Part shown: piece after piece, positions 30,362 through 61,801 of the stretch
Position numbering within the stretch: the first letter of the stretch is position 1
Layout of the letters: each line of letters starts with the position of its first letter
DNA from: Gemmatimonadales bacterium
Lineage (GTDB): Bacteria > Gemmatimonadota > Glassbacteria > GWA2-58-10
Assembly: GCA_024278175.1 (NCBI GenBank)
Contig: JAJRTS010000006.1
Span: 41,036-105,035 of the forward strand
Direction: 5' to 3'
DNA: 64,000 bases
Position numbers and translations under genes: made by a program
The notes under the pieces: model-generated
Databases searched by the model: none
What the model was told of the DNA's origin: nothing
Seen by the model: the letters and a program-made list of their open reading frames with translations, nothing else

Positions 30362-33300
30362 TTAATTCCCCGGGGCTGGCGGCGGCGGCTGTTGCAGGCG
30401 GCGCAGAAGCCGCAGGTATTTATCCGCCTCCTCCGGCCGCCCCATCTTATCATAAGTGAGCGCCAGGTTATTGTAGGCGGTCGGCTGTAGCGGGTTGAGC
30501 TCGATTGAGCGCTTGTAGTATCTCACGCTCTGTTCGTAGTCTCCCCGGTTGGTCAGGATCACGCCCAGGTTCAGACACGCCAGCGGGTTGAACGGGTCTT
30601 TCTCCAGACTGAGGCGGTAGAGCCTCTCGGCCTCGTCGCGGTTGCCGCGCTTCAGCTCCAGGTTGCCGAGGTTGAAAATCGCCGAGCCGTAGTCCGGGCT
30701 GGCGCTGATCGCGCGGCGCAGCAGCTTCTCGGCGGCGGACAAGTCCCCGGCGCGGTAGCGCACCAGGCCCAGGTTCAGCATCGTCTGGGGGCTGGCCGGG
30801 TTAAGCTTGAGCGCCCTGCGGAAGTAGCGTTCGGCCTGGGTTTCCAGCCCCTGGTTGCTGGCGCAGACGCCGAGCTGGAACCAGCTCTGGGCGTGCTCGG
30901 GGATAATCCGGGTTACCTGGCCGAACCACTGCCGCGCGGTTTCCAGCTCCCCACGGGAGTAGTAATATTGACCGAGCTGGTAGCGCACCACGAAATCGCC
31001 GGGGTTTTGCCTGGCGATTGCCAGCAGCGAATCGGCGTCCGGGGCTGGCGGGTTCGCGAAATGACGGATGTAGTCGTCCGCCGGGTTACGGGCGAGCGCC
31101 CTGCGATAAAGGTTGATCGAGGCCGCCGGCTGCTGGAATACCCAAGCGGCGAACTTGCCCTCGTAGAAATCGATCCGCGGCTCGTACCAGTGATTTATCC
31201 TCTCCACGAGCGAGAGCATACTGTCGGCCGGGGCATCGCCTCCGTTCCACTGCGTGTAACCGGTAATCGGCTCCAGGTTGTCGATCATCCAGTGGTAGGT
31301 ATCCATCGGCACCGTGGGGGCCATCGTGCGGCTGAACTCGATCACCGGGCGGCTGTCGGTGTTGAGCGGGGCGTCAGCGGTGAGTTCCCGCAGCTTGCGC
31401 GGCCCCATCATGAACAGCGAGGCCAGCGAGAGCGGATTGTCCAGGAATACCTCGGCCAGATCGGCCCGCACTTTGGGCTGGCCAAGCAGCCGCCGCCAGC
31501 GCGGGTAGTCGATTACGGTTTCCTCGCTGGTGCCCAGCAGGATCACGTTGGCCGGGTTGCACCACCACAGGCTGCTGTTGGGGAAGACTTCCACGAAAGA
31601 GCGCAGCAGGCTCTTGAATTCTCTCAGGGTAAGCCCGTTGGTGGGCAGCCAGGCACAGACAGTGCCGCCGGGCTTGAGGGCGCGACGGCAGAGCTGGTAG
31701 AAATCCATCGTGTAGAGCATCGGACTCAGCTTGGGATGGATCGCGTTGAAGCTGATCACGTCGTACTCTTCATTGCTGGTCAGGATCAGGTTGCGCCCGT
31801 CGTTGAAGACGATTTTTACATTCGGGCTGTCGAGCACCCCGTGGTTCTCCGGCAGGAAAAACTCCGCTGTCGAGGCTTCCTCCGGCACCAGCTCCACGCA
31901 CTCGATCCTCGGCAGGTCGTAGCGGGTGGCGGTGTAGAGCGTGCTGCCGAAGCCGAAACCCACCACCAGCATACTCTTCGGGTCGGGGTGGAACAGGATC
32001 GGCAGGTGGGAGAGCAGCTTGTGGATCACGATATCGTCGAAACCGGTGTAGGCCGTGCTCTCGCCGTTGATATTCAGTTCCCTGTTCCCGTCGGTGTTGC
32101 GCAGCACGGCCACGCTGGCCTCGGTGGTCTCGTTGACGTAGATGATTTCCTTGCCCGTGTTCGGCAGGCTGAAGCGCATTATCGGACCCATCGAGCCGGA
32201 AGCCACTACCCAGACCAGCACGGCTCCCAGCACGGCGGGCCCCGCGATTGCCAGCCGCGCGCGCAGGGGGCCTGGGCCGCTTTCCAGTTTCAGCGCCCAC
32301 AGCGCCAGACCGGCGCCCAGCAGCGAGACAGCCACCAGCGAGCCGCTGATGCCCAGCAGGGGCAGCAGGAACATGCCCGCGGCCAGTGAACCGCCGATCG
32401 TGCCCACCGTGTTGGCCGCGTACAGCTTGCCTACCCCGCGCCCCAGCTCCTCACACCTGGAGATGAACAGCCGGTTGACCACCGGGAACGCCACGCCCAT
32501 CGCCAGCGTGGGGATTCCCAGCACCAGCAGGCAGAGCGAGAACTTGACCAGCGTAACCTGGTTCCAGCTGTTGGCCCCGAACCAGAGGTTGAGTTGCTGA
32601 TAGATCTCAGGCAGACGGCCGATCAGCGGCAGGCTGGCCAGCCCGGCTACCGCGATAACCCATTGCAGCGCGCCGAAAACGAGAAACAGCCTGCGGAATC
32701 TGTCGACCAGGGGAGTGACAGCCAGTGAGCCCAGCGCGATGCCGGTCAGAAAGCAGGTGAGGATGATCGTGAAGGCGTGGGTCGAGAGGCCGACGAAGTA
32801 GATCAGCGCCCGGGTCCAGAGCACCTGGTAGGCCATCGCGGCGAACCCGCTGATCGCGAATAACAGCGGTACCAGGTCGATAGAGCGCTTGGCATAGGCG
32901 GGGCTGTCCGCGCGCTTTTTCTTTTTTTCCACAGTGGTTTGTACGGGCGAGGCGGCCACCAGCACGACCAGGGCCAGTGCGGCGGCGATTAAGTTACCGC
33001 AGGCGGCGATTATCACGCTCACGGTTTCTCCGTAAAGCATGATCAGCCAGAAGCCGGTGGCCAGCGTGCCGATAACCGCGCCAGCCGTGTTGAGACCGTA
33101 GAGCGTACCGATCCGGGCGCCAAGCTCACCGCGCGAGCGCACCAGGTAGCGGCCCACCACGGGCAATGTTCCACCCATCAGCACGGTGGGCGCCAGCATG
33201 ATAGCCGCCCCGAGCAGGAGCCGGACCGAAAACAACAGGATCCCGCTGCTCATGCCCAGGCCGTGAAGGCTCGTGTAAACCCCATCGAGCACCGGCAGCA

Positions 33301-33577
33301 GGCCCAGGCTGATCGCAGCTCCGAGGACGGCGATACCAAGTTCGATCAGCACGTAAAGGCGCAACAGCTTGTCCGAGCGGTCGGCCAGCCGCCCGAACAG
33401 CCAGCTTCCCAGGGCCAGCCCGCCCATGAACACGGCCACCACCGTGCTGACCGCGTGGACCGTGTTGCCGAACACCAGGGCCAGTTTGCGCATCCATAAA
33501 ACCTCGAAAGCCAGACCGCTGGCGCCCGAGAACAGGAAACAGATGTAGAGCAGAACATTGATTCGCTGTCGATTCAT
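30362..33577 (-). CDS. fused MFS / spermidine-synthase-like membrane protein with C-terminal TPR repeats
   Basis: N-terminal 12-14 TM region, a central SpeE-like Rossmann domain (VVGFGFGSTLY...VELVPE...DVISFNAIHP), and a C-terminal TPR array. Start chosen at Met 33577 (MNRQRIN). Confidence 0.65.
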   Translation of the reverse strand: MNRQRINVLLYICFLFSGASGLAFEVLWMRKLALVFGNTVHAVSTVVAVFMGGLALGSWLFGRLADRSDKLLRLYVLIELGIAVLGAAISLGLLPVLDGVYTSLHGLGMSSGILLFSVRLLLGAAIMLAPTVLMGGTLPVVGRYLVRSRGELGARIGTLYGLNTAGAVIGTLATGFWLIMLYGETVSVIIAACGNLIAAALALVVLVAASPVQTTVEKKKKRADSPAYAKRSIDLVPLLFAISGFAAMAYQVLWTRALIYFVGLSTHAFTIILTCFLTGIALGSLAVTPLVDRFRRLFLVFGALQWVIAVAGLASLPLIGRLPEIYQQLNLWFGANSWNQVTLVKFSLCLLVLGIPTLAMGVAFPVVNRLFISRCEELGRGVGKLYAANTVGTIGGSLAAGMFLLPLLGISGSLVAVSLLGAGLALWALKLESGPGPLRARLAIAGPAVLGAVLVWVVASGSMGPIMRFSLPNTGKEIIYVNETTEASVAVLRNTDGNRELNINGESTAYTGFDDIVIHKLLSHLPILFHPDPKSMLVVGFGFGSTLYTATRYDLPRIECVELVPEEASTAEFFLPENHGVLDSPNVKIVFNDGRNLILTSNEEYDVISFNAIHPKLSPMLYTMDFYQLCRRALKPGGTVCAWLPTNGLTLREFKSLLRSFVEVFPNSSLWWCNPANVILLGTSEETVIDYPRWRRLLGQPKVRADLAEVFLDNPLSLASLFMMGPRKLRELTADAPLNTDSRPVIEFSRTMAPTVPMDTYHWMIDNLEPITGYTQWNGGDAPADSMLSLVERINHWYEPRIDFYEGKFAAWVFQQPAASINLYRRALARNPADDYIRHFANPPAPDADSLLAIARQNPGDFVVRYQLGQYYYSRGELETARQWFGQVTRIIPEHAQSWFQLGVCASNQGLETQAERYFRRALKLNPASPQTMLNLGLVRYRAGDLSAAEKLLRRAISASPDYGSAIFNLGNLELKRGNRDEAERLYRLSLEKDPFNPLACLNLGVILTNRGDYEQSVRYYKRSIELNPLQPTAYNNLALTYDKMGRPEEADKYLRLLRRLQQPPPPAPGN

Positions 33578-33844
33578 CCTTTTGACCTGTGAAAATTGTG
33601 CCGAGCGACGCAGGCAATTGCCGGGAAACAGATGGCCTACCGGCTCGAAACTAACAAATCGAACTGCAAATAACAAAATAAAATGGTATGCGCCCCACAC
33701 TGGCCGAGACTCGTGGTTGTTGTTAATATTGCAGAAATGCTTTAAAATTCGGTTGACATTCAAATATAAAAGAGTGGATAAATACTGGTTGTTCGGGTTG
33801 TGACCAGCCTGATTGCAGTATAACAGGAGTAATGTCAGCGATTA

Positions 33845-37407: not shown

Positions 37408-40400
37408 ATGTCCATGAATGGTAAAGCTTACAGCTTAAGAGCCGCACTGCTCGGCCTGACGCTGGCATTGCTGGCAGCCGGTTCGGCTTTCGCCCAGGCG
37501 CTTAACACGGCGAAACTCGAGGGCGTTGTCAGAGATGCCGACACCGGCCAGCCGCTGGCCGGGGTACAGGTCGTGGTCGAGGGGACCCGGCTCGGCAACG
37601 TAACCAACAACGATGGTTACTATTTCATTCTCAACGTGTCTCCAGGCCGGCGTGGCGTCACTTTCAGCTATACCGGTTACCAGAAAACCACGGTTGCCAA
37701 CCAGTTGTTGCTGGCGGGTCAGACTATGACAGTGGATTGCAATCTCAGCTCCACCGTGGTCCAGCTCGAAGGGATCGTGATCGAGGGACAAAACGACATC
37801 CTGATCCCCCGTGACAACACGGCTTCCAAGCAGCGCATCACCAGTGAGAAGCTGACCGGGGCGCCCGCCACCAGGCTGGAAGACCTGATGGTGCTCGAGG
37901 CCGGCGTATCGCTCGGCGGCGAGGGCGGCAAGGCCCGCGGCCTTCGTATCCGCGGCGGCCGTCTGGGCGAGGAGGCGATGGTGGTTGACGGCGTGACGGT
38001 GCGTAACTACACCGCCGACCCCTACCGCACCGGTACTTTCTGGGTTTACACTCAGGAAGAGGGTTCGCTGAGCGAGGACACCACGCCGCTGGAGTTCTCC
38101 ACGAGCGCGGTGGAAGAAGTCGATATTATCACAGGCGGTTTCCAGGCCGAGTACGGTAACGCCCAGAGCGGTATCGTCAATATCGTGACCAAGGAAGGCG
38201 GACCTGATCTCAGGGGTAACGCTCGCTGGACCACCGACGAGGCCAATCCCCGTACCTCCGACTATGGTTACAACCAGCTTACCACCAGCGTGGGCGGCCC
38301 GGTACCGTTGATCCCTCACCTGAACTTCCAACTTACCGGTGAGCTGCAGGGCGTGGAGGATATCAGTCCCACTCACGCCAGCGAGGGTTTCCGCGGAGTA
38401 AACCAGCAGTTTGTCGACCGCCTGAACTGGGCCGTGCGTAACGACCCGGTCTACGGAGATCCCAAGTGGTGGAACGATGCGGGCTACGACGAGCCCCGTC
38501 CCGCCTTTATCCTGAGCGAGATGGTTTCCGCCCGCGAGATCTGGGCCGGGCGGATGGGAGAGGACTTTTTCTCCGGCCATCCCTGGGTTTCGCAGGGAGT
38601 TTACTCTCCGCCCAACCCCGTGCGGATCCCGGATAACTGGCAGGACAGGAACCTGCTCAACGGCAAGCTGACCTATTCGCCGATCCGGGGCCTGAAATTC
38701 TTAATGAGCGAGAACTTCTCCCGCTACCAGCGTCAGTGGCCTTCGGAGTCGGACGCCTACTGGCGTCAGGGCTGGGTAACGCCCGACATGCTCGGCAAGC
38801 GCATGTGGTCCACGCTCAAGGGCGACATGATCGCCGGGCCCGACACGTTTGCCTACGTGCCGATCGGCCTGGGACGGCGCACGCGTACGGGCCAGTTCCT
38901 GGCCGGTGTCAACTGGGACTTCTACCAGAGCGCCGAGCGCAGCGCATCGCTGCAGTTCCGGTTCATGAACATGCGCGTACAGGATATCAACTCCTCGAAC
39001 ATCAAGGAGAACTGGCGGCGTGATCCTCAGTTCCTCACCTTCAACGTGCACGATCTGCCGTTCATGGTCGAGACGTTTCCGGGCAGGGATCACCTGAACA
39101 ATCCCGAGGACGCGGCCTGGTACTATACCGATGGTACCGGCGTGTGGAACCGGGATCATACCTACTGGACTCCGTTCGGCTATTCGACCAACTCGCAGCT
39201 CTACTATCTGAACTACCGTTACCTGCGCGAGGACCAGAACACGTTCAAGCTGGATATGGAGTTCCAGCTCGACCGCCACAACCGGATGAAATTCGGCTGG
39301 CAGGGCACGTTCTTCCAGAACAACCAGTTCCAGGTCCGCCAGCAGCCGCGAATCCTGGACAACGAGTTCGATTACCGTCCGAGACTGTTCGCCGCTTACA
39401 TTCAGAACCGTACCGACCTCGGCGATTTCGTGTTCGACTACGGCCTGCGCTGGGACCAGTTCCAGCCGCGTGACAACTGGGGCTTTCGCAACAACGACCA
39501 GTACGGCGAGCGTTACTTCCCCAAAGACCAGAGCGAGTTATCGCCGCGCTTCAACGTGGCCTTCCCGGTTACCGACAAGGCCCAGATGCGTTTCAGCTAC
39601 GGCGTTTTCACCCAACTGCCCAGCTTCACGTTCATCTTCAGCGGCAATAACCCCGGCGGTCTGGGGTACTCCAGGACTGATGCTTTCGAGGCCGGCCTGA
39701 GTTACCTGCTCTCCGATGAGACGGTGCTGGATTTTACGGGATTCTACCGCGATGCCGACGGCAACGTGTCCTCCGGCTCGTTCTTCCGTGATTATACCCA
39801 GGCCGTTACCGGCCGCTGGGTGCGCGGAATCCAGGGCGCCTTCACCAACAGCGACCGCGCTAACGTGAAGGGTTTCGACCTCACGCTGCGCAAGCGTTTC
39901 AGTAACCACTACTCGCTGAACCTGATCTACACCCTGCAGTTCTCGCGGACCACCGGTTCGAGCTACCAGGCGTCGACCAACGACGGACTGCGGCCCGCGC
40001 GCGAGGACAGGACCCATAAGCTGTCGGCGCACTTGAGCTACATGACCGACGAAGACGTTTTCGCCGGCACCTGGGCCAACAAGGTCTTCAAGAACGTAAG
40101 GGCCTACCTGTTGCCCAGCGTGATGAGCGGCAAGCCCACCGGTGTGTACGTGCCGTATACGGCTGCCAACGCAAGTCTCAACCGCATGCGCGGCCGCTGG
40201 GATTACAACGTCGATCTCAGGCTGAACAAGGAATTTGGCCTGTCCGGCAGAAAAAGGATCAGCTTGTTTGCGGAAGTTTACAACCTGACCAACCGCAAGC
40301 TGCCGCAGCCGTATCCTTCCGGATACACGTTCCAGGGTTATCGGTACGCAACCGGTGGAGTCGAGTACAAGTGGGACACCGCTCCCTCTGATGCAAAATA

Positions 40401-40554
40401 CCTGTTCGTTCGTGATTTCGACGGGGACGGCGTACTCACCATCGATGAAGCGGCCAGGGGCGCAATTGCCGACGCCTTTGCCAGGGCCACGGACAATTTC
40501 AGAGCATGGGGCCTGGCCCGTCAGATCAGAAGCGGTATCGAGTTCACCTTCTGA
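37408..40554 (+). CDS. TonB-dependent-receptor-like outer membrane protein (CarboxypepD_reg + plug + beta-barrel)
   Basis: Signal peptide, carboxypeptidase-regulatory-like domain (GVVRDADTGQPLAGVQVVVEG), plug region, long barrel, and C-terminal aromatic residue (EFTF). Confidence 0.7.
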   Translation: MSMNGKAYSLRAALLGLTLALLAAGSAFAQALNTAKLEGVVRDADTGQPLAGVQVVVEGTRLGNVTNNDGYYFILNVSPGRRGVTFSYTGYQKTTVANQLLLAGQTMTVDCNLSSTVVQLEGIVIEGQNDILIPRDNTASKQRITSEKLTGAPATRLEDLMVLEAGVSLGGEGGKARGLRIRGGRLGEEAMVVDGVTVRNYTADPYRTGTFWVYTQEEGSLSEDTTPLEFSTSAVEEVDIITGGFQAEYGNAQSGIVNIVTKEGGPDLRGNARWTTDEANPRTSDYGYNQLTTSVGGPVPLIPHLNFQLTGELQGVEDISPTHASEGFRGVNQQFVDRLNWAVRNDPVYGDPKWWNDAGYDEPRPAFILSEMVSAREIWAGRMGEDFFSGHPWVSQGVYSPPNPVRIPDNWQDRNLLNGKLTYSPIRGLKFLMSENFSRYQRQWPSESDAYWRQGWVTPDMLGKRMWSTLKGDMIAGPDTFAYVPIGLGRRTRTGQFLAGVNWDFYQSAERSASLQFRFMNMRVQDINSSNIKENWRRDPQFLTFNVHDLPFMVETFPGRDHLNNPEDAAWYYTDGTGVWNRDHTYWTPFGYSTNSQLYYLNYRYLREDQNTFKLDMEFQLDRHNRMKFGWQGTFFQNNQFQVRQQPRILDNEFDYRPRLFAAYIQNRTDLGDFVFDYGLRWDQFQPRDNWGFRNNDQYGERYFPKDQSELSPRFNVAFPVTDKAQMRFSYGVFTQLPSFTFIFSGNNPGGLGYSRTDAFEAGLSYLLSDETVLDFTGFYRDADGNVSSGSFFRDYTQAVTGRWVRGIQGAFTNSDRANVKGFDLTLRKRFSNHYSLNLIYTLQFSRTTGSSYQASTNDGLRPAREDRTHKLSAHLSYMTDEDVFAGTWANKVFKNVRAYLLPSVMSGKPTGVYVPYTAANASLNRMRGRWDYNVDLRLNKEFGLSGRKRISLFAEVYNLTNRKLPQPYPSGYTFQGYRYATGGVEYKWDTAPSDAKYLFVRDFDGDGVLTIDEAARGAIADAFARATDNFRAWGLARQIRSGIEFTF

Positions 40555-40612
40555 ACCCGGCTCGGTCAATTGTGCTACTGAACGTCAGTCTTGAATCGAC
40601 GGGAGAAAGATT

Positions 40613-43600
40613 ATGTTGAAAAACAGTAGAATACTTTTCACTCTGGCCACGATGGCCCTGGTGCTCTGCATGGCTGTGGACGGTTTCGCTCTGCAGACCC
40701 GGACCAGAAAATCCCAGGGTAATAATTTCGGCCTGGAGTTGAACCTCGGTGGCACCGTTTTAGCGGGGACCAGTGAATATCCCCGCGGGTCGGGGAACTC
40801 CATCCCTACTTTCGAGGGTGGCTGGGGGCACTTCCTGGCGGTAGCCAGGGACCTCGATGGCGACGGGTATGCTGAGGACACCCTCTATGGCCGCAGCCGT
40901 GGCCGTACCGTGGGTGGCCGCAGAGCGTCACTTGAAGCGATGGATCTTGTACTGGAAGGTTTCAATGCCGGCCATCGGATGGATCAGTGGATGGGCCGTG
41001 TGGAAAACAACGAGATCTGGAGCTCCCTTGACCCCGACAACCTCACGCGCTGGCCGGCCGAGTTCCGCGAAGGCCGTACGATGAGCGGCGCCCCGATCCT
41101 GTTTGGCCGCGAAACCATCGGCGCCATGCACTCGGACGCCTACAATCGCAGCTATCACGGATCGGTACCGCCTACAGGCGTTTCGCTTGAATACCAGTTC
41201 TATTTCCTCGATTTCGGTGAAAGCAACGATCTGGCTTTCGGCCATCTGTTTATCCGCAACATGAGCGAATACCTGAAATACAACGATAACCAGAGTTTCA
41301 GGGACCAGGTTGCCGCAACTCCCGATGGGCAGGTCTGGGACAGCTTCGCGCTGATGTATGTCGAAAACTACTTCGGTATCGGTTTCAGCACGACCGGGAT
41401 GGATGAAGGCTGGGCTTTCCATCCGGCTCGCGTGATCAAGTGCATGGTCGATCAGGACGGGCTGGAAGACGGTTTCACCAACGGCGGCATGGCTTTCATT
41501 ATCGGTTACACGCCGCTGAAGAATATGGAGTTCAAGGGCGAGACCGCCTACCTGTCCAACACCACCAACTTCCGCTGGAGCGCTGATTTCGGTATCTCGA
41601 AGGCGCTGGACATGGGTACGCGCTCCGATCCCGGGCATACCTTTCGCTGGGCTACCTGCTTGCAGCCGGATGGGACAGAAAGGGACATCTCCGACTTCTA
41701 CGGCGATGAGATCAGCCCCTACACCGGCCGCGCCCTTACCGGCAACCCCGGTGTGATCGTGCCCTCCGATTCCCGTTACAACCAATGGCTGTGGGGCCGC
41801 CAGGCCCGGATCAATTACCATGCCTGGAGCGGACTGCACCAGTTCGGTCCCCGCGATACCACCACCACCGATTTCGCGATCATGGCGGCTTATCCCACTA
41901 ATCCTCCGCTGGTGATGAAGCCCAACGATATCGCCAATATCGACGATCCCGACATCCAGGTCCAGCTCGCTCCTCTGGAGCGGATGCAGGACGTTGCAAA
42001 GATCGTTTACAAGGGCGGATATATTCTGCCTCAGACACCTGTGCCGCCCCCGCTGACTATCGTGCCGGGTGACAGAGAGGTGACGATTACCTGGAGCAAC
42101 GTTAACCTGAACACCCCGGATGAATACTATTATTTCATCCAGGATAATCCCGAAGTCGATCCCGAAGGCGTATACCGGGAGTACGATTTCGAGGGATATC
42201 GTCTTTATCGCAACTATGTGGGACCGAGCGACGCCCATTCCGAATTGATTTATGAATCCAGTCTGGGCGCGGGTGATCTTGCATTCCACTACGTGGACAC
42301 AAGGGACAAGGACGACCCGTACTACAGGATGCGTAACGGGCTAAAGATCTGGTACGCTCTCGTACCTTACGACCTGAACTACGATCCGGCCACGGGGGAC
42401 GAACTCAGCCTGCCTGATCCCGGGCAGTCGAAGGTTTGGAACCGCACGTTCCCGGAAGGTTACTACACGGTTCGGCCGCGCAGCGATGCAAGCAACTTCA
42501 AGCCTGCCGAAGTCGCCTCGATAACCTATCTGCCGAGCGCGGGAGAAGCGATCCAGGTAACTGAGGTGGCGCTGGCCGGTTCCGAGGGTATGATCACCGA
42601 GACCCCGAAGTTTCTCGAGCCTTATACCGACATTGCCGTCGAGGTCGTAAACAGTGAAAGGATAACCTCGGATCAGACGGTTTACCTCGCTGTTACGGGG
42701 ATGGGGCCTCATGGTGGTCTGGCCGGTAGCAGGACCGTGGTCCTGCAAGACGCCGGTGGCACCCTGGTCGATCCGTTCAAACAGAGCATTATGGTCAACG
42801 GCCGCGGCAGGGACTACAATAAAAGTCTTGCCTATTCCGCCGGTATGAGTGGTGACGGTATTTCATACTCGGTCAACATGTCGATCAGCCAGCAGACTAT
42901 TCGGAACATGCAGACCCAGATGGACCTGGGTGGTTACGGTGGTGATGTCTCTTTTGCCACTTACCGCTGGGGTGAAGGCTCGGGCGGACTTGTCTACAAC
43001 AGCGGTGGCTCAAATGCCGCCTACACCAGGGCCGGTGAGTTCAAGGTTACCTGGAGCGCCTCCGGCGGCGGCCTGACCTGTACGGTTCAGGACCTGACCC
43101 ACGGCAAGGCGATCCCCTTCAGCCCGTATATCGATGATGAGAACTGGGGATTCATCGTCGGTGGCGCTACGTATGCGGATATTACCGGAGACGCGGGCCG
43201 TGAATGGGGCGGCCCCAGCAACGTGCTGGTTCCGCAGAGTGAACGCAGCATCATGCTGGCCGAGACAGTCCCTGCCAATAATACGGAGGACTTCTACCTC
43301 TACGTTAACGGGCAGGCCTGGAAGTTCACCAATCTCAGCGCGATGCCGGCCTCCGGCACCGTTATGACGGTGATTACGGCATACGGCAGCTGGAACGGCG
43401 ACGGTACGGCTTTTACCCAGACACCGGAACCGATCTTTCCCGGTGACAAATGGCAAGTCATCATCAAGGCGATGAGTATGAGCACCGATGATATTGACCT
43501 GTCAAAAATCAGGGTCGTGCCGAATCCATACATCGCCAGTTCGATGCTCGATCAGTCCGGCGGCAGCCGCAGGATCGATTTCGTCAACCTGCCGGGCCGC

Positions 43601-43876
43601 TGCACGATCAGGATTTATTCTCTGGGCGGAAATCTGGTCAATGTGCTCAATCACATCGGTTCAGGCCGGACCGGTTGGGGTAACTATACCGACCTGGACA
43701 ACATCCAGCCGGATAACACTCCGCTGGAGTTCACGGGCTACGATAACCACGGCGGCACCGAACCCTGGAACGTGAAAAACCGTTTCGGACAGACTGTAGC
43801 CAGCGGGTTGTATTTCTACCATGTGACGGACGAGCGGGGAGAAACGCACACGGGTAAGTTCTACATCGTCAACTGA
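40613..43876 (+). CDS. large secreted protein of unknown function with a T9SS C-terminal sorting domain
   Basis: Signal peptide. The last ~80 aa (IRVVPNPYI...CTIRIYSLGGNLVNVL...ASGLYFYHVTDERGETHTGKFYIVN) match Por_Secre_tail / type-A CTD architecture. Confidence 0.65.
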   Translation: MLKNSRILFTLATMALVLCMAVDGFALQTRTRKSQGNNFGLELNLGGTVLAGTSEYPRGSGNSIPTFEGGWGHFLAVARDLDGDGYAEDTLYGRSRGRTVGGRRASLEAMDLVLEGFNAGHRMDQWMGRVENNEIWSSLDPDNLTRWPAEFREGRTMSGAPILFGRETIGAMHSDAYNRSYHGSVPPTGVSLEYQFYFLDFGESNDLAFGHLFIRNMSEYLKYNDNQSFRDQVAATPDGQVWDSFALMYVENYFGIGFSTTGMDEGWAFHPARVIKCMVDQDGLEDGFTNGGMAFIIGYTPLKNMEFKGETAYLSNTTNFRWSADFGISKALDMGTRSDPGHTFRWATCLQPDGTERDISDFYGDEISPYTGRALTGNPGVIVPSDSRYNQWLWGRQARINYHAWSGLHQFGPRDTTTTDFAIMAAYPTNPPLVMKPNDIANIDDPDIQVQLAPLERMQDVAKIVYKGGYILPQTPVPPPLTIVPGDREVTITWSNVNLNTPDEYYYFIQDNPEVDPEGVYREYDFEGYRLYRNYVGPSDAHSELIYESSLGAGDLAFHYVDTRDKDDPYYRMRNGLKIWYALVPYDLNYDPATGDELSLPDPGQSKVWNRTFPEGYYTVRPRSDASNFKPAEVASITYLPSAGEAIQVTEVALAGSEGMITETPKFLEPYTDIAVEVVNSERITSDQTVYLAVTGMGPHGGLAGSRTVVLQDAGGTLVDPFKQSIMVNGRGRDYNKSLAYSAGMSGDGISYSVNMSISQQTIRNMQTQMDLGGYGGDVSFATYRWGEGSGGLVYNSGGSNAAYTRAGEFKVTWSASGGGLTCTVQDLTHGKAIPFSPYIDDENWGFIVGGATYADITGDAGREWGGPSNVLVPQSERSIMLAETVPANNTEDFYLYVNGQAWKFTNLSAMPASGTVMTVITAYGSWNGDGTAFTQTPEPIFPGDKWQVIIKAMSMSTDDIDLSKIRVVPNPYIASSMLDQSGGSRRIDFVNLPGRCTIRIYSLGGNLVNVLNHIGSGRTGWGNYTDLDNIQPDNTPLEFTGYDNHGGTEPWNVKNRFGQTVASGLYFYHVTDERGETHTGKFYIVN

Positions 43877-54572: not shown

Positions 54573-56807
54573 ATGAGAAGTGGCCTGCTCTCTTTTATGT
54601 TGGCGGTAATTGTGTCGCTATCCTGGGCCGATAGCTCCAGCGCTTTTGTGACTGAGCTTCGCCAGCGCGGATATGCCCTGATTCCCACGCCCCAGCGGGT
54701 GGAGCTTGAGAACGGCGATATAACACTGGGCCCGGGCTGGGCGATTGAGGCCGAGGGCCGTGCCCGGGGAGATATCGCCGTGCGGCGGTTGACAGAGGGT
54801 GCACGGGAGCTGCACGGGCTGGTTTTAGCGGGTAAGGGCGAGGGCAAAATCGTGCTGAAAATAGCCGCTGGGACCGTTAAAGGCACGGATGATCCCGAGC
54901 TGCTTAAGCAGGCCTACAGGCTGACAGCTACGCCGGGCAGGGTGGAAATAACGGGTAACGATGCGCCGGGGCTGTTTTATGGCGTCCAGAGTTTTTTGCA
55001 GCTCCTGCGCCGCAATCCTGACGGCAGTCTCAGTCTGCCGGCGGGCACTATCACCGACTGGCCCGACCTTCAGCTTCGCTTCGCCCACTGGGACACCAAG
55101 CACCACCAGAAAAGAATCGAAACGCTGAAGCGGCTTATCGACTGGCTGGCTTATTTCAAGGTCAACATGATCGGTTTCGAGATGGAGGATAAGTACGAGT
55201 ACCCCAGCCACCCGATTATTGGCGCGCCGGGCGCATACACCAAAGAGCAGATGCAGGAGCTTACCCGCTACGCCCTGGAGCGCCACGTTCAGCTTGTCCC
55301 GGTTATCCAGAGTCCGGCGCACATGGCTTACGTGCTCAAGCACGAAGAGTTCGCCCACCTTCGCGCCGACGGCTGCAACTACCAGATCTGCATGTGTGAC
55401 CCCGAGGCGATCCAACTCATTTTCGACATGTTCGACGACATGATCGAGGCCACGCCGGGAGTGGAGTATTTCCACGTCTCCACCGACGAGGTCTATTTCG
55501 CCGGAACCTGCGACAAGTGCGAGCGGGAGTACAACGAAGAGAACCGCAGCCAGGCCTGGATCGATTTCGTGCTTAAGGCCCACGAGTTTCTTGCCTCCCG
55601 TGGCCGGACGATGCTGGCCTGGGTGGAGTACCCGGTGCTGGCCGAGCATATCCTCCAGTTGCCGCCGGATTTGATCGACGGGGTGATGGGCGGCGACCAG
55701 GATTTCCTCGATATGGAAAAAGCTGTCGGGATCAGGCAACTGGCCTACAGCAGCACCCAGGGCTCGGAGTTCCTGTTCCCCAACCATCTGCCTACAACTT
55801 ACCGTGGCCGCTATACGCGGGGCAGGGTGGAGGGCAACGTGCAAACCGTGCGCAGGGGACTGGCCATGGGGGCCAACCCGATTGGCTCGTTCGCGGCCGC
55901 CTGGGACGACTCCGGCCTGCATGAGGAAACTTTCTGGCTCGGCTGGGCCTCTGTAACCCAGTACGCCTGGACCCACCTGACACCCACTCCGGAGCAGACC
56001 ACGGCCGATTTCATGGATGTGTTTTATGGACCCGGCCATCAGGATATGCTGGAGGTCTACAACCTGCTTGAGCAGGGCGCGCGCTTTTTCGAGGATGGCT
56101 GGGAATCGGTTATCAGCTCCGAGCGCAATCCGGGCTACGGGAACAGTGATGGTAAGGGTATCCATACCGAGCGCTACGACCAGTTGCTGGTGCCGCCCTC
56201 GCTCCCCGATCCTGCCGACCTCGCTATCGAATCCGTGTTCAGCACCAGGTATGCCGGAAGGGTTGAGCAGGCCCGCGCCCTGCTGCCGGAGAGCGACAGG
56301 CTGATCGCTCTGCTGAACCGCAACATGACCAGCCTGTCTCGCAACCGCTACAACCAGGAAGTATATTTGAGTATCGCCCAGCTTGAACGACACTTTATCG
56401 AAACTCTGCTTGAGTTGGACGAGACCGAGCGTTCGCTGATCTCGGCCTCCGAAGCCGCGGCGAAAGGGAATCACGGCCGGGCGGTGAACTATATGGTGGA
56501 GGCCAACAACTCCGTGGCCGCTCTGCTGGAGAGGCGCGAATGGATGTGGAACAACCTGACGGAGGTCTGGGAAAAAAGCCGCTACGAGAAGGGTCGGAGC
56601 GTGGACGGGCGGAAGTTCGTGCACGTGCTTGACGATCTCAAGGACCACTGGGCCGACCGCCGCCGTGGCCTGGACTATATGATGGCCCCGTTCCAGCGCA
56701 TGCAACTGCCCGCCTGGCGCGGCGCTCTGGTGAAAATTATCGACTCCTACGCCGCCGCCCACGGCGTGCCCGTGCGGGGGCTGGCTGTTCCCCGGCTGGA
56801 GGACTGA
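54573..56807 (+). CDS. GH20-like glycoside hydrolase (beta-N-acetylhexosaminidase-type catalytic domain), secreted, paralog 1
   Basis: Signal peptide, an N-terminal GH20b-like domain, and a TIM barrel beginning ITDWPDLQLRFAHWD. Shares the same 744-aa length and domain order with the next gene. Confidence 0.5.
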   Translation: MRSGLLSFMLAVIVSLSWADSSSAFVTELRQRGYALIPTPQRVELENGDITLGPGWAIEAEGRARGDIAVRRLTEGARELHGLVLAGKGEGKIVLKIAAGTVKGTDDPELLKQAYRLTATPGRVEITGNDAPGLFYGVQSFLQLLRRNPDGSLSLPAGTITDWPDLQLRFAHWDTKHHQKRIETLKRLIDWLAYFKVNMIGFEMEDKYEYPSHPIIGAPGAYTKEQMQELTRYALERHVQLVPVIQSPAHMAYVLKHEEFAHLRADGCNYQICMCDPEAIQLIFDMFDDMIEATPGVEYFHVSTDEVYFAGTCDKCEREYNEENRSQAWIDFVLKAHEFLASRGRTMLAWVEYPVLAEHILQLPPDLIDGVMGGDQDFLDMEKAVGIRQLAYSSTQGSEFLFPNHLPTTYRGRYTRGRVEGNVQTVRRGLAMGANPIGSFAAAWDDSGLHEETFWLGWASVTQYAWTHLTPTPEQTTADFMDVFYGPGHQDMLEVYNLLEQGARFFEDGWESVISSERNPGYGNSDGKGIHTERYDQLLVPPSLPDPADLAIESVFSTRYAGRVEQARALLPESDRLIALLNRNMTSLSRNRYNQEVYLSIAQLERHFIETLLELDETERSLISASEAAAKGNHGRAVNYMVEANNSVAALLERREWMWNNLTEVWEKSRYEKGRSVDGRKFVHVLDDLKDHWADRRRGLDYMMAPFQRMQLPAWRGALVKIIDSYAAAHGVPVRGLAVPRLED

Positions 56808-56866: not shown

Positions 56867-59101
56867 ATGATAACCAGGGTCAATATTCTGTTGAGTGCTC
56901 TGCTGCTTTGCCTTGCGCTGCCGGCTCAGGCCGCAATCACCATGACTCCCACCGACCTTCGCCTGCGGGGCTACAGCCTGGTGCCATCACCCCAGAAAGT
57001 CGAACTCAGGCAGGGCGATGTGGTGATCGACCAGAGCTGGGCGGTAGAGACTGAAGCCGATGGCCTGGCAGCCGGCTGGCTGGAAGAATGGGCGGAAGAC
57101 CTTCACGGGTTAACGCTGGCAGGCACCGGCGATGGCAAAATAACTCTGGCGGTGGACAAGCGGGCCGTGACCGGTGTGGACGATCCGGGTCGTAGCGCAC
57201 AGGCGTACAAGCTGGAAATTTCCGCGAGCCGGGTTACGATTACCGGCAACACTGAGCAGGGGCTGTTCTACGGCGTCCAGAGTTTTTTGCAGCTCCTGCG
57301 CCGTAAGCCCGATGGCCGCCTGTGCGTACCGGCGGGCAGCATTATCGACTGGCCGTCGCTGGAGCTGCGCTTTGTCCACTGGGACACCAAGCACCACCAG
57401 AAACGCCCCGAGACCCTGCGCCTGATAATCGACTGGCTGGCCTTTTTCAAGGTCAACGCGATCGGTTTCGAGATGGAGGACAAGTACGAGTTTCCCAGCC
57501 ATCCGCTGGCAGGTGCGCCGGGCGCTTATACCAAGGAGGAGCTGCAGGCTCTTACCCGCTACGCCCTGAAACGTCATATCCAGCTTGTGCCCCAGATCCA
57601 GGCTCCGGCCCATATGAACTGGCTGCTCAAGTACAAGCAGTACGAGCATCTCAGGGCGGACAATTCCAACTACCAGATGTGCATGTGCGACGAAGAGGGG
57701 ATGGACGTTATCCGTGACCTCTACCAGGACATGATAGACGCCACGCCGGGAGTGAAGTACTTCCACGCCTCCACCGATGAGATTTATTACGCCGGTATCT
57801 GCGACAAGTGCGGCAGGCCGTACAACGACGAGAACCGCAGTCTGTACTGGGTGGAGTACGCAAGCTGGATGCACCGCTGGCTGGCCGAGCGCGGCCGAAC
57901 GATGCTCTGCTGGGTTGAGTATCCCCTGCTGCCGGAGCATATCAGGATGCTGCCCTCGGGCATTATCGACGCGATCACCAACGGCAGCAAGGCCCCTGTC
58001 TGGATCGATGAGATGAACAAGGCGGGGATTCCCCAACTGGCCTATTCCAGCATGCAGGGCTCGGAGTTACTGTTTCCCAACCTGTTCCCGACCACCTACC
58101 GCGGCCGTCGCACCGAGGGCAGGCTGAAGGACGCTTCCACCACGGTACCGCGCGTGCTGGATAAGGGGGCGAACCTGTTGGGTACTTTCTGCGCCAGCTG
58201 GGACGATTCCGGTCTTCACGAGGAAGCGTTCTGGCTTGGCTGGGTGGTTGTCAGCCAGTACGGCTGGAACTATGCCTCGCCCGGTGTGGACCAGGCGGTG
58301 GCGGACTTTATGGATGTGTTCTACGGCCCGGACGCGGGTGAGATGGTGGAAGCCTACAAGCTGCTCGAGCAGGGTGCGCGCTTTTTCGAGGACGGCTGGG
58401 ACCGGGTAAAAAGCAAAGAGCGCGGACCCACCTACGGCAGCAGTGTAGGGCCGTTTCCTTACGACCGCCAGGACCAGACCCTGTCCATGCCCCAGTTGCC
58501 TGAGGGCGAAACCATCCGCGTTACACCCACGTTCGCGGAAAAATACCGCGAGCGGATCGACGGGGCCTGGGAGCAGAAAAGGCTCAACGACTCTCTGGTG
58601 GCCATGCTGATGCGCAACCTGGGCCGGGTGGAGCGCAACCGCTACAACCTGGAAGTGCTGCTCTCGCTGGCGCGCCTGGAGCGCTATTTCATGGATATGC
58701 TTACCACCATGGAGCAGGCGGAAAGCTCCATGGTCGCGGCCTCGGCGGCGGACGCGGAGGGCAAGCACGCCGCGGCCGTGGGACAGCTGGTGGTGGCCTC
58801 GAACAGCGTGGCGTCCCTGCTGGAGCAGGAGAGTGCGATGTGGAGCAACCTGGTCACCGTCTGGGAGAAGAGCCGTTATCCCAAGAACCGCAGCGTGGAT
58901 GGCCGCGAGTTCTTCCATGTGCTGGACGACGTGAAGGACCATTTCGCTGACCGCCGCAAGGGGCTGGACTACATGATGGCCCCGTTCCAGCGGATGGACA
59001 TCCCCGGCTGGAGAGAGCGTCTGGTGAGCTTTATCGACTCCTATGCCGCCGCCCACGGTGTGCCCGTGCAGGGGCTGGCCGTTCCCCGGCTGGAGGACTA
59101 A
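56867..59101 (+). CDS. GH20-like glycoside hydrolase, paralog 2 (tandem duplicate)
   Basis: Co-linear with 54573-56807 (GLFYGVQSFLQLLRR, FKVN.IGFEMEDKYE, identical C-terminal HGVPV.GLAVPRLED). Confidence 0.5.
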   Translation: MITRVNILLSALLLCLALPAQAAITMTPTDLRLRGYSLVPSPQKVELRQGDVVIDQSWAVETEADGLAAGWLEEWAEDLHGLTLAGTGDGKITLAVDKRAVTGVDDPGRSAQAYKLEISASRVTITGNTEQGLFYGVQSFLQLLRRKPDGRLCVPAGSIIDWPSLELRFVHWDTKHHQKRPETLRLIIDWLAFFKVNAIGFEMEDKYEFPSHPLAGAPGAYTKEELQALTRYALKRHIQLVPQIQAPAHMNWLLKYKQYEHLRADNSNYQMCMCDEEGMDVIRDLYQDMIDATPGVKYFHASTDEIYYAGICDKCGRPYNDENRSLYWVEYASWMHRWLAERGRTMLCWVEYPLLPEHIRMLPSGIIDAITNGSKAPVWIDEMNKAGIPQLAYSSMQGSELLFPNLFPTTYRGRRTEGRLKDASTTVPRVLDKGANLLGTFCASWDDSGLHEEAFWLGWVVVSQYGWNYASPGVDQAVADFMDVFYGPDAGEMVEAYKLLEQGARFFEDGWDRVKSKERGPTYGSSVGPFPYDRQDQTLSMPQLPEGETIRVTPTFAEKYRERIDGAWEQKRLNDSLVAMLMRNLGRVERNRYNLEVLLSLARLERYFMDMLTTMEQAESSMVAASAADAEGKHAAAVGQLVVASNSVASLLEQESAMWSNLVTVWEKSRYPKNRSVDGREFFHVLDDVKDHFADRRKGLDYMMAPFQRMDIPGWRERLVSFIDSYAAAHGVPVQGLAVPRLED

Positions 59102-59189
59102 CAAAGGTGGCACAGGTCGGCTCTAATAGCTCTTGCGTACATAGTGCGCAAGAGCTATTATTTTATGAACTAACGTCAAGGGAGGCGTC

Positions 59190-59723
59190 TTGCGAACAAC
59201 AGTGTATTGCCTGGTATCGCTGCTGGGGGCCGTGCTGATACAGGCAGGTTACGGGCAGCAGGCGGCGGAAGAGCAAGTTACCCCCACAGTACGAATCCGG
59301 CAGATAGCGGAGCCAACCGTGCTGCCAACTGACTCGATCACCTCCCTGACGGATACCCGCCCGCCGATTGACGAGTTTGGTACGCCCTACCTGTTGCCCC
59401 ATGAGCACCCGGACCTGCCCACCCATATAGCGGACTGGCTGGACGAGCAGAGGTATGTTATTCCGCAGGGATTAATAACAGAGACAAGCGGACGGATTAA
59501 TGTGGTTGCAGGAGAATTTGCGAATCCAGGGCAGCAAGATATAGCGGTCTGTTGTACTAACCGAGAGACCAGTTCGATTATCATGTTTTGGGGTAGTGCA
59601 ATTGACAGTATTTCCCAAATCGATAAAATGCCTACCAGCACCTTTGAAAGTGACGGGTTCAGTGATATCGAGCTTTTTTGCTGTTCGTACTACATATCCA
59701 AATATGTCGCAGGGTACTCATAA
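59190..59723 (+). CDS. small secreted hypothetical protein (paralog A)
   Basis: Signal peptide. Conserved block DEFGTPYLLP.E.PDLP...WL...YVIPQG ... NPGQQDIAVCCTN ... IMFWG is shared with the next ORF. Low-GC region. Confidence 0.45.
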   Translation: MRTTVYCLVSLLGAVLIQAGYGQQAAEEQVTPTVRIRQIAEPTVLPTDSITSLTDTRPPIDEFGTPYLLPHEHPDLPTHIADWLDEQRYVIPQGLITETSGRINVVAGEFANPGQQDIAVCCTNRETSSIIMFWGSAIDSISQIDKMPTSTFESDGFSDIELFCCSYYISKYVAGYS

Positions 59724-60378
59724 TAAGATTATTGCAATTATGATATCGCTATGTCTCACAGTTGTTGTCTTGGATTTTTCAAATGTGTTTGCAGAAGTCC
59801 AAAACACCATAAGGAAGAACAGGGATCAGCAGGAAAAAGCTTCATCGCATCAGCAGAAGCTTACCATCGATGAATTTAATACTGATTATATTATCCCGGC
59901 TGAATTTCCGGACCTGCCCAGCAAAATCGTGCAATGGCTAACTGCACGGCAATTCGTAATTCCGCAGGGAATCCCGGAGTACATGGTGGATGACGTCTTG
60001 CCCATTAATGCCATCAAAGGTCGGTTTAGGAATCCAAATCAACAGGACTGGGCTGTATATTGTACTAATATAGATAGCGCTTGTATCATCTTGTTTTGGG
60101 AAGGAGATACTATCCAACCTGAGGTTTTATCCAGGGATCCTGATTCGGCTAGTACTTACAAGCCGGATGGCGAAAGCATATCTTGTTGTTTTTTTTATAT
60201 AAGCCCCGCCGGGGTGAAATTAATGCTCAGGCAATATGAATTGCTGAAATCTGATGGTGCTCTTGAACCGCCGCCCATTAACCATGACGGTATTTCTTTT
60301 GGAATATTGGACCAGGCAATTATATATATTTTATACAAATACAAGGGGAAATGGCTGAGCCTCGCTGGAACTGATTAA
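59704..60378 (+). CDS. small secreted hypothetical protein (paralog B)
   Basis: Start at Met 59704 (MSQGTHNKIIAIMISL...), with a signal/TM segment. Shares the DEF.T.Y..P.EFPDLP, VIPQG, NPNQQDWAVYCTN and ILFWEG blocks with paralog A. Confidence 0.45.
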   Translation: MSQGTHNKIIAIMISLCLTVVVLDFSNVFAEVQNTIRKNRDQQEKASSHQQKLTIDEFNTDYIIPAEFPDLPSKIVQWLTARQFVIPQGIPEYMVDDVLPINAIKGRFRNPNQQDWAVYCTNIDSACIILFWEGDTIQPEVLSRDPDSASTYKPDGESISCCFFYISPAGVKLMLRQYELLKSDGALEPPPINHDGISFGILDQAIIYILYKYKGKWLSLAGTD

Positions 60379-60404
60379 TATTTGTCAGTATTGAAAACCA
60401 GATT

Positions 60405-60830
60405 TCAGATATACACGGAACAATGCCAGTGGAGCGGAGTTCCGTGCAATTTAGCAGTCTTAAAGTAGTTTTTCAGCTGGTTTTTTTGCCAGGTTTTCTG
60501 GGCCTCATTCATTTTGTTGTAATTTATATCCACATTCTGGCCCCATCTGTGGTTCTTGTGGCCATCACCGTCCATTTTTCCACCAGTTTTGAATAATCCT
60601 CCCCACGGCAAACTCAGGTCGTTGACCCATAACCTGTTTTGTTCTTCTGTTGTTTCGCCGAAATTACCCGCCTCGTACTGCCTGCCGAACGCATCGGCCA
60701 CGCTCTTGATTGCCGCCACCGGCGGGGGCCTGCCCCAGTGCGAGTCGGGGTGTGCGCCGTCGTTGGTGTAGGTCTCTATGTACGGATGGTCAATAGCGCT
60801 CAGGTTTTCCATGGTCTTGCCAAATTTCAC
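60405..60830 (-). CDS. peptidase M15-like (VanY / endolysin-type zinc peptidoglycan peptidase) domain protein; possibly the 3' part of a frameshifted gene
   Basis: GHKNHRWGQNVDI fits the M15 H-x-x-G-x-A-V-D-I zinc-ligand signature. C-terminal PLHWH fits the E/P-W-H motif. The reading frame stays open for about 30 codons upstream of the annotated GTG and overlaps the end of the next ORF. Confidence 0.45.
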   Translation of the reverse strand: MKFGKTMENLSAIDHPYIETYTNDGAHPDSHWGRPPPVAAIKSVADAFGRQYEAGNFGETTEEQNRLWVNDLSLPWGGLFKTGGKMDGDGHKNHRWGQNVDINYNKMNEAQKTWQKNQLKNYFKTAKLHGTPLHWHCSVYI

Positions 60831-60862
60831 GTCAACGAAAAACGACCGGCTGCCGAACCCCT

Positions 60863-61609
60863 CTATGTTGATCGTAACTTTGAATCTCGAGCAGAAATCA
60901 GTGGCTGGTAAGTTGCGTTCACCGCCAGGCGGCTCCAGGGCAACTTGAATTCCAGGACCGGATTATTGCCGGGTGTTGAGCTGGCGGTAACACCCTGCTG
61001 AACAGTAAACGTACCCACCTGGCCTTGGTTCCGGCCGACAGAGTGGATGTGCCCGCCGTATGCCGCTCCCCGCACGTGCCCGATATCGACTGATGCGTGG
61101 GTACCCTTAAGGCCGGATATTTCCAGTAGCGCACACGGTGGGGCTGATTTTTTTGATGTTCCGCCCGGATGCTTAAGTATGATCGGCTCCAGCCTGTTCC
61201 CGGCATTTATCGCCAACCAGTTGAACATTACGATTGGTTGGTTCGGGCCGTTATCGACTTCCAGCAAAAGGTTGGTGATCGTATCCCGCGTCGTACGCAA
61301 TGTTCTGGAATGAGCGCTTAATTGCCTGGTCTGCTCGTTATTTTTCCCGATTCCTGTTGCCATCCGGCTGAGTTCCTGCGATAAACCGGCGCTTTTGTTG
61401 AGCATGATGCGCGCCGCGCGGTTTATTTTGTCTTTCCCACTGGCAAAGGAACCGCCGGTAGTGTCACTCAGCAGCGTATCGGCTCCGCGTTGCATGTCCT
61501 GCATGACTCTCTTGCTGCTGGAGTCGTTCTTGCCATAGTTTATCATAATACCATCAATTTCGAGCGCTTTGGTCCATATTTGCCTGAATAATTCCATTGC
61601 TCCCCTCAC
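60863..61609 (-). CDS. hypothetical protein; possible N-terminal part of a frameshifted toxin/peptidase gene
   Basis: The ORF ends within the region where the downstream frame is still open (about 90-nt overlap). Contains HASVD...GGHIH. Low-GC region. Confidence 0.35.
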   Translation of the reverse strand: MRGAMELFRQIWTKALEIDGIMINYGKNDSSSKRVMQDMQRGADTLLSDTTGGSFASGKDKINRAARIMLNKSAGLSQELSRMATGIGKNNEQTRQLSAHSRTLRTTRDTITNLLLEVDNGPNQPIVMFNWLAINAGNRLEPIILKHPGGTSKKSAPPCALLEISGLKGTHASVDIGHVRGAAYGGHIHSVGRNQGQVGTFTVQQGVTASSTPGNNPVLEFKLPWSRLAVNATYQPLISARDSKLRST

Positions 61610-61801
61610 GGTGCGCGGATCAGTTTACCTTGCGAATCTTTTCGCGCTTAAAATAACACCGTAAAGGGCGCTTGTCCAGCGCAACTGATTATATAATATT
61701 AACTTAGGCGCATTCTGGTAAAATATTTTTTCTGTGCGGGTGCGCTGAACAGGCAAAAATATCAATTTTGCGCGGTGGGGGCGGCAGGGGGCCAGGAGGC
61801 C

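Follow-up and report, generated by a model that had tools for sequence, protein, structure and literature searches.

A 64,000 nt stretch of the Gemmatimonadales bacterium genome (contig JAJRTS010000006.1 of assembly GCA_024278175.1, positions 41,036 to 105,035 of the forward strand; hereafter the window) contains a low-GC islet in which a metallopeptidase gene on the minus strand lies tail-to-tail with two small plus-strand genes encoding putative exported proteins. We propose that the islet is probably a peptidoglycan-targeting toxin accompanied by periplasmic immunity proteins, in an arrangement like that of colicin M and its immunity protein Cmi. This interpretation is based on a leaderless protein with a C-terminal peptidase domain, an exported partner that is always adjacent, the presence of arrays, chimeras, pseudogenes and stand-alone cassettes, one array from which the toxin has been deleted, and low GC content. 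As sequenced, the putative toxin is inactive, and only the toxin-proximal member of the two small genes (59704–60378) is intact.

The minus strand of the islet was annotated as two ORFs (open reading frames), at 60863–61609 (proximal) and 60405–60830 (distal). The distal frame is open well upstream, as an earlier reading of the sequence alone had noted, to approximately 60968, and the resulting overlap between the frames is ~105 nt, not ~90 nt as was then estimated. Of 5.8 billion clusters searched with the merged protein, only six matched, and in four of these the homolog is a single ORF covering 99 % of the merged protein: P0001 (389 aa, 83 % identity), P0002 (392 aa), P0004 (393 aa) and P0005 (387 aa), the last originating from a metagenome-assembled genome (MAG) named Candidatus Glassbacteria. 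The more distant homolog P0021 is likewise encoded by one uninterrupted ORF. At the DNA level, the alignment at ~60905 reads TACCA-GCCACTG in the window and TACCAGGCCACTG in the related locus L004, and the same 1 nt deletion (GG to G) is seen relative to loci L001 and L002. The protein junction reads ..TYQATDFCSRFKVTIN.. in the homologs; in the window, one frame reads ..TYQ and the other ATDFCSRFKVTIN, and the proximal frame continues past the deletion to a stop at 60863. Because four intact homologs span 99 % of the merged protein and exactly one base is missing, this comparison confirms that the two ORFs are a single gene of ~390 codons disrupted by a frameshift, one of two options put forward by the sequence-only reading.

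The other option was a programmed shift; a −1 ribosomal frameshift would join the two frames and regulate production of the toxin. The ~105 nt overlap and the otherwise intact halves are features that such a mechanism would share, but no slippery heptamer of the form X XXY YYZ occurs at or close to 60905, the four full-length homologs and P0021 are uninterrupted, and the window differs by exactly one missing base. We consider a programmed shift scarcely credible. The deletion falls inside the motif Y-Q-A-T-D-F-C-S-R-F, at the start of the conserved C-terminal module. In the form Y-x-A-[ST]-D-[VF]-C-x-R-[RF] (window 60882–60919; also L008, L049, P0029 and P0035), this motif opens the C-terminal module that most relatives share, and many database matches start exactly there.

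The C-terminal domain of the merged protein is, by profile comparison, a LAS metallopeptidase nearest to family M74, and belongs to a divergent sister group of MepA, not to the MepA orthologs. An exhaustive profile search recovered 133 relatives, nearly all of which matched the C-terminal 110–170 residues only. The window protein itself matches Pfam Peptidase_M74 (PF03411) at E 5e-4 (20.2 bits, cutoff 25) and the NCBIfam MepA equivalog (NF006947) at E 1e-4 (21.6 bits, cutoff 272). Peptidase_M74 was matched by half of the relatives scanned (38 of 76; best E 3.8e-9), and a 40-sequence profile of the domain reached MepA (1tzp/1u10) in the PDB at E 1.4e-4. The sister-group placement follows from this combination of a sub-threshold score for the window protein with matches of its relatives to M74 and of the family profile to the MepA structures. 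The next PDB matches of the domain profile were VanY-like carboxypeptidases (E 0.09–0.17) and hedgehog N-domains, all of which are LAS proteins. MepA was reached only with this deeper C-terminal profile; the PDB search with a full-length peptidase profile gave nothing meaningful.

In the alignment of the domain profile to MepA, the blocks YFGHPDLV, GDMGMPAGG and GHASHQTGLDVDI of MepA correspond to NHYGTPEL, NDMSLPWGG and PHxxHRxGxxVDI of the family, and HRWGQNVD of the window aligns to HQTGLDVD. The alignment ends before the C-terminal H-x-H; we infer that this motif is equivalent to the H-x-H of MepA and, by analogy, take it to supply the second zinc ligand and the catalytic histidine. The window domain and MepA, its best sequence match, have in common the blocks (H/Y)-x-G-x-P-x-L, (N/G)-D-M-S/G-L/M-P-x-G-G, H-x2-H-x-x-G-x-x-V-D-I and a C-terminal H-x-H, which presumably represent the LAS arrangement of zinc ligands with the residue roles of MepA. 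Residues H339, H342, D349, H382 and H384 (P0001 numbering) are all retained in the window copy and are invariant or nearly so in the family; among the 76 relatives, H342 and D349 are invariant and H382 and H384 nearly invariant. The zinc-ligand motifs HRWGQNVDI and PLHWH picked out in the sequence-only reading are both present. The same reading had assigned the protein to M15, and this holds only in so far as the protein is a LAS zinc peptidase. M74 and M15 both belong to MEROPS clan MD, and M15 enzymes of the VanY/endolysin type share the LAS superfamily and the H-x6-D plus H-x-H zinc site. However, two blocks of the family, NDxSLPWGG and, upstream of it, HP-x-(N/S)-H-(W/Y)-G, can be aligned with MepA and not with VanY, no Pfam M15 match was found for the window protein at E ≤ 1, and no M15 family was matched among the 76 relatives at E ≤ 0.01.

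MepA is Sec-exported and single-domain, a housekeeping enzyme without a dedicated neighbour, whereas the window protein is leaderless, carries ~230 additional N-terminal residues and always has a small exported protein as its partner. There is no signal peptide: the start is closely preceded by a stop codon, and the N-terminus is not hydrophobic. The N-terminal extension consists of a helical bundle followed by a beta-sandwich. In the AlphaFold2 model of P0001, these occupy residues 1–116, with a predicted local distance difference test (pLDDT) score of about 90, and residues ~122–259, respectively. Neither the bundle nor the sandwich gave an informative match. PADLOC returned a weak ZorA match to residues 13–114 of the helical region, which we judged to be non-specific. 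Signal peptides are mostly missing from the closer relatives of the peptidase (E < 1e-8), whereas Sec signals are usual in the distant ones.

The proteins encoded on the plus strand are homologous to each other, with 44 % identity across 116 aa (E 2e-28), and the shared sequence blocks that had led to their earlier description as paralogs are present in both. That description holds for the homology of the pair; the first gene is not a simple paralog, being a truncated chimera of two array genes, as described below. A mechanical ORF list begins the second gene at 59596, and the ATG at 59704 is the plausible start. Both proteins have hydrophobic N-termini, that of small protein 2 being a putative signal or anchor, and export is predicted from hydropathy together with the lipoboxes of homologs. 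Most members of the family have a lipobox (..AGCGQQ, ..ACGG, ..LACTSG); the lipobox cysteine is absent from small protein 1 (LIQAGYGQQ), the orthologs of which read AGYGQQ or AGSGQQ. Small protein 2 ends in the C-terminal motif of the family, ...KWLSLAGTD. When small protein 2 alone was the query of a word-indexed search, no homolog other than itself was recovered, and a family profile built from syntenic copies brought the total to 14 clusters. The family is beta-rich and propeller-blade-like; it has no Pfam or NCBIfam match, and a PDB sequence search with its profile gave nothing meaningful.

A partner gene lies immediately downstream of the peptidase gene, in convergent orientation, at 11 leaderless loci that comprise about 14 pairs (Table 1), with peptidase identities down to ~20–30 %. 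The link between the peptidase and the small exported proteins, which had been suggested tentatively, is borne out by this adjacency across relatives. Convergence had been counted as a weakness of that link. We consider that it is not, because it is the rule in this family, being conserved in every leaderless relative examined, and is also the documented arrangement of colicin M and Cmi (PMC4661593, PMC5821083). The two stop codons are separated by 26 nt in the window, by 1–17 nt in most relatives and by 272 nt in L076, and the partner genes occur in arrays of one to five per locus.

Several of these loci show a modular organization. At L008, a peptidase with 29 % identity is followed by a 277 aa lipoprotein homolog and, further on, by a stand-alone 134 aa catalytic cassette with another convergent small ORF. 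Locus L075 (ENA ERZ21869602 ctg92932l, 10001–20120) contains, within 10 kb, two leaderless peptidase genes of full length (encoding 401 and 451 aa), a stand-alone catalytic cassette of 152 aa and five small-protein genes. Every peptidase or cassette at L075 is tail-to-tail with a small gene, and the cluster looks like a polymorphic-toxin locus with orphan modules. At L077 (11496–12797), the convergent partner is a 433 aa lipoprotein in which the small-protein domain occurs twice in tandem. A scan of JGI metagenomes added one locus; a scan of GTDB species-representative genomes with the alignment of the close family found no relative.

Comparison with L005, a locus in the sister MAG GCA_054474455.1 in which three small genes (a, b and c) follow a GH20 gene, revealed how the window array has changed. 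Window positions 58900–59468 correspond to the end of the GH20 gene and the 5′ part of gene a (89 % nucleotide identity; 59190–59468 lie within small gene 1), 59339–59702 to the middle of gene b (93 %), and 59701–60477 to gene c plus 99 nt downstream (94 %). Small gene 2 is thus a complete gene c. Small gene 1 is a recombinant, because its 5′ part matches gene a and its later part gene b. By this alignment, recombination between paralogs in the zone where the two matches overlap (59339–59468) removed ~650 bp. The gene has also lost ~55 C-terminal codons through a 190 bp deletion. Direct repeats (D1, D2 and D5) with a spacing of 499 nt are shared between the window paralogs. The 3′ end of the window peptidase gene is itself a mosaic, 91 % identical to L004 upstream of 60462 and, across 60409–60742, 90 % identical to L006, with which it shares a loop insertion. 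At L004, a second catalytic fragment of the peptidase lies beyond the small gene at the contig end (4114–4386), 93 % identical to window 60622–60742, which would fit a cassette that is duplicated or varies between strains, or else a collapsed assembly of the sister MAG.

Decay is also seen in relatives. In L005, gene c is followed by a 70 bp stump of the 3′ end of the peptidase gene and then by unrelated genes, and the toxin was therefore deleted there. The second small gene of L001 is split by a frameshift, and the identical split is found in an independent JGI assembly (L074); the decay in these loci is therefore real. These observations bear on the possibility that the frameshift in the window is an assembly or sequencing error, and that the toxin gene is intact and functional, the remaining interpretation being unchanged. 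A single base differs, in a GG dinucleotide; both halves are otherwise conserved, with all catalytic residues kept and no further stops in either half's own frame, and the window sequence of the gene is carried by one assembly only. We give an error a considerable chance, albeit one short of even: the GG dinucleotide is not a long homopolymer, the islet contains other genuine decay in the form of the chimeric, truncated small gene 1, the split partner gene of a relative was reproduced in an independent assembly, and the toxin has been lost outright in L005. With the toxin frameshifted, the first immunity gene truncated and the second intact, the cell would probably keep its protection while no longer making the weapon.

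Table 1. Features of the low-GC islet and loci with a convergent partner gene (window coordinates)
Feature	Position	Strand	Remarks
Terminator-like palindrome	59124..59160	+	17 bp stem, 3 nt loop, T-run; left edge of islet
Small protein gene 1	59190..59723	+	177 aa, TTG start; truncated chimera
Crossover zone	59339..59468	+	conserved PPIDE..PDLP..WL..YVIPQ; overlapping blastn alignments to genes a and b of L005
Sigma-70-like promoter match	59602..59629	+	TTGACA, 16 nt spacer, TAAAAT; 11/12; ~75 nt upstream of small gene 2
Small protein gene 2	59704..60378	+	224 aa from ATG; intact; putative immunity gene
Peptidase gene, 3′ part (distal frame)	60405..60905	-	conserved C-terminal module; stop codon 60405-60407
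H-W-H-C-S-V-Y-I	60408..60431	-	H-x-H motif at C-terminus
H-K-N-H-R-W-G-Q-N-V-D	60528..60560	-	H-x2-H-x6-D motif; aligns to GHASHQTGLDVDI of MepA
N-D-L-S-L-P-W-G-G family signature	60597..60623	-	aligns to GDMGMPAGG of MepA
Frameshift site	60904..60906	-	one G of GG missing (DNA alignment)
Peptidase gene, 5′ part (proximal frame)	60906..61597	-	ATG at 61597, alternative GTG at 61609
Promoter-like matches upstream of peptidase gene	61650..61722	-	AT-rich leader; consensus only
Loci with convergent partner			window, L001/L074, L002/L003, L004, L006, L008, L049, L075 (three pairs), L076, L077

The promoter-like sites in Table 1 are consensus matches, the total count of which is not above shuffled expectation.

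A different interpretation is that the peptidase is a housekeeping or conditional wall-remodelling endopeptidase, and that the propeller-like small protein is its periplasmic regulator, inhibitor or scaffold, with no inter-bacterial role. MepA itself is a housekeeping periplasmic endopeptidase, and the chromosomal position of the window module is conserved. The broader family offers further grounds for such a pairing. Peptidase relatives with Sec signals (L009–L073, identified among GTDB genomes by a degenerate NDxSLPWGG DNA pattern) occur in Elusimicrobia, Acidobacteriota, Bacteroidota, Nitrospirota and Verrucomicrobia MAGs, and in nearly all of them the next gene downstream is co-directional, tightly coupled and codes for an exported partner. 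The partners of the Sec-type enzymes fall into two groups, one in which seven proteins match Pfam FIMAH and a 'GDFNGDG' group (alignment A10) in which 5 of 13 match Pfam FG-GAP_3. The A10 group and the window small-protein family give a weak, collinear alignment (hhalign E 0.0037, probability 9 %), and the A10 hidden Markov model matches one window-type member, a bridging sequence, at E 5e-7. Homology between the window family and the FG-GAP-like partners is suggestive only.

We nevertheless regard a regulator pair without an inter-bacterial role as unlikely for the window clade. The enzyme has no export signal in this clade, and its own cell wall would be out of reach by the Sec route. Partner copy number varies from one to five, with chimeras, split copies, stand-alone cassettes and toxin-deleted arrays; GC content is low and the distribution patchy and very sparse (six close homologs among 5.8 billion clusters). 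The enzyme is also dispensable, being frameshifted in the window and deleted in L005. The features expected of a conflict system are present across the family, namely arrays of partners, the window chimera, the split copy (L001/L074), stand-alone cassettes (L008, L075), an immunity-only array with a toxin stump (L005), a tandem-fused partner (L077), low GC content and sparse distribution.

A number of observations weigh against a toxin–immunity module. The window protein falls below the Pfam gathering score for M74, and the catalytic domain was modelled with pLDDT < 50 (residues 259–389, AlphaFold2, P0001), so that the LAS fold is assigned by sequence only. No PAAR, VgrG, Rhs, MIX, FIX, WHIX, LXG or ColM domain was found in the window protein or the 76 relatives, no gene for a secretion system turned up in the flanks or in the ten largest ORFs scanned in the window, and no lysis gene is evident. 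In the Sec-signal relatives the partner gene is co-directional, an arrangement that would also fit an enzyme–regulator pair. Finally, the 3′ ends of the window and L006 peptidase genes are 90 % identical, while the neighbouring small proteins are only ~35 % identical, and by this comparison the type of the adjacent partner is not simply tracking the C-terminal type of the peptidase. An association with type VI secretion system (T6SS), type VII secretion system or Rhs genes, which the sequence-only reading had proposed to look for, was not seen in the window protein, its relatives or the flanks examined, nor were Hcp, VgrG, adaptor or T6SS core genes present among the called genes of eight loci.

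The islet is distinct in composition. Mean GC content across 59400–61700 is 47.9 %, compared with 59.0 % for the whole window, in agreement with the initial description of a low-GC islet, and 400 nt windows between 59400 and 61800 fall to 0.41–0.56. The fall begins within small gene 1, where 59190–59450 has a GC content of 61 % and 59451–59723 of 43 %. In every relative compared, the GC content of the module is below that of its flanks. The terminator-like palindrome at the left edge lies directly 3′ of the second GH20 gene, and its 37 nt are kept in L001, L004, L005 and L006 despite diverged surroundings. Gene order is conserved in L001, L002/L003, L004 and L006, where genes for a cNMP-binding protein, an AI-2E transporter and sometimes a BcGHD glycosidase are followed by the 390 aa gene, then by one to three small genes in the opposite orientation, and lastly by a single GH20 gene or a pair of them.

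Low GC content could also indicate a prophage or tailocin lysis remnant, a possibility raised in the sequence-only reading, in which a leaderless endolysin would be accompanied by small phage proteins. Endolysins are leaderless peptidoglycan hydrolases and some are LAS peptidases. However, neither the peptidase nor the small proteins have a significant PHROG match, the sole match (E 0.004) being to a family of function unknown, and tblastn against 50,697 phage records and 72,556 plasmids gave no match. No integrase is nearby, and the only tRNA gene, at 26.6 kb, is not close to the islet. The GH20, AI-2E transporter and cNMP-binding flanks, conserved metabolic genes, recur in four related genomes without phage genes, and the partners are lipoproteins in arrays, not holins or spanins. 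A phage origin is in our view very improbable.

Other genes of the window were also recorded. Immediately left of the islet are tandem paralogs of a secreted 744 aa GH20 protein (beta-hexosaminidase-like; 54573–56807 and 56867–59101); the equivalent site has one GH20 copy in L002 and two in L006 and in the source contig of L001. A SusC-like TonB-dependent receptor (CarboxypepD_reg, Plug and barrel) followed by a 1087 aa ORF without a Pfam match occupies 37408–43876, and a 1133 aa fusion of a major facilitator superfamily-like region, a spermine-synthase-like domain and TPR repeats is encoded at 30362–33763.

A close parallel to the proposed toxin–immunity module is provided by colicin M and its relatives. 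The gene for the periplasmic immunity protein of colicin M lies downstream of the toxin gene, on the other strand, and the genes for burkhocin M are found in low-GC regions (PMC4661593, PMC5821083). Like colicin M/Cmi, burkhocin M and pyocin M, the window module would comprise a leaderless modular toxin with a C-terminal domain that acts on the wall in the periplasm; it also resembles these ColM-type systems in its low GC content and in the position, just downstream on the opposite strand, of a protein predicted from sequence to face the periplasm. The components differ. ColM is a lipid II phosphatase (PF14859), whereas the window enzyme is a LAS peptidase, and no ColM (PF14859) match was found in the window protein or the 76 relatives. 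Cmi is YebF-like, whereas the window partner is beta-rich and propeller-blade-like, and the colicin M systems are from Proteobacteria, whereas the window belongs to an uncultured group related to Ca. Glassbacteria. The N-terminus of the peptidase is confidently predicted (AlphaFold2) to be a helical bundle, and so differs from a disordered translocation segment. Neither a TonB box nor a receptor-binding domain was identified in the window protein, although no search was aimed at a TonB box.

In the model that we favour, the leaderless modular protein of ~390 aa (61597 to 60405, minus strand) would be the toxin, and would cut peptide cross-links in the peptidoglycan of competitors once inside their periplasm. 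It may reach them either as a colicin-like diffusible protein or as cargo of a secretion system encoded elsewhere. The small plus-strand proteins, predicted to be Sec-exported and in most relatives to be lipoproteins, would sit in the periplasm of the producer and block the peptidase. Tail-to-tail coding, as in Cmi and colicin M, would allow immunity to be expressed independently of the toxin. In the window, the 1 nt deletion would separate the putative delivery part of the toxin from its catalytic part.

MepA-like DD-peptidase domains are listed as predicted toxin domains in 13 T6SS WHIX effectors (PMC12135965), and the proposed enzymology is therefore not unprecedented. The window module would resemble T6SS effector–immunity pairs in combining a leaderless peptidoglycan hydrolase with a periplasmic, often lipoprotein, immunity partner, and in the occurrence of orphan arrays of putative immunity genes. 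It differs from them in that its genes are convergent and do not form a co-directional operon, and in that searches of the protein, the 76 relatives and the flanks revealed no WHIX, PAAR, MIX, FIX, VgrG, Hcp or adaptor.

Peptidoglycan-degrading toxins with periplasmic immunity are well known, and include T6SS effectors, colicin M and pesticin. The kind of system proposed here is already known; its particular families, a divergent M74-like putative toxin domain and a small-protein partner family, are absent from Pfam, NCBIfam, PHROGs, PADLOC and the literature searched. We speculate, with considerable reservation, that a MepA-like LAS peptidase and an FG-GAP-like or propeller-blade partner could constitute an undescribed, widespread module with two forms, the leaderless form being a colicin-like diffusible bacteriolysin made by uncultured Gram-negative lineages, with an N-terminus (helical bundle and beta-sandwich) that would be a new uptake or delivery module. 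If so, one form would pair a Sec-exported enzyme with a co-directional partner (Elusimicrobia, Acidobacteriota, Bacteroidota and other MAGs), and the other a leaderless, N-terminally variable enzyme with a convergent partner (relatives of Glassbacteria and Gemmatimonadota).

For annotation, the minus-strand ORFs should be merged as one frameshifted gene, small ORF 1 flagged as a truncated chimera, and small ORF 2 flagged as the only intact member. The locus adds a putative toxin domain family nearest to MepA, and a partner family without a Pfam or NCBIfam match, from environmental lineages that have barely been studied. The strict tail-to-tail arrangement, arrays and orphan cassettes of these loci provide clean comparative data on how such pairs diversify.

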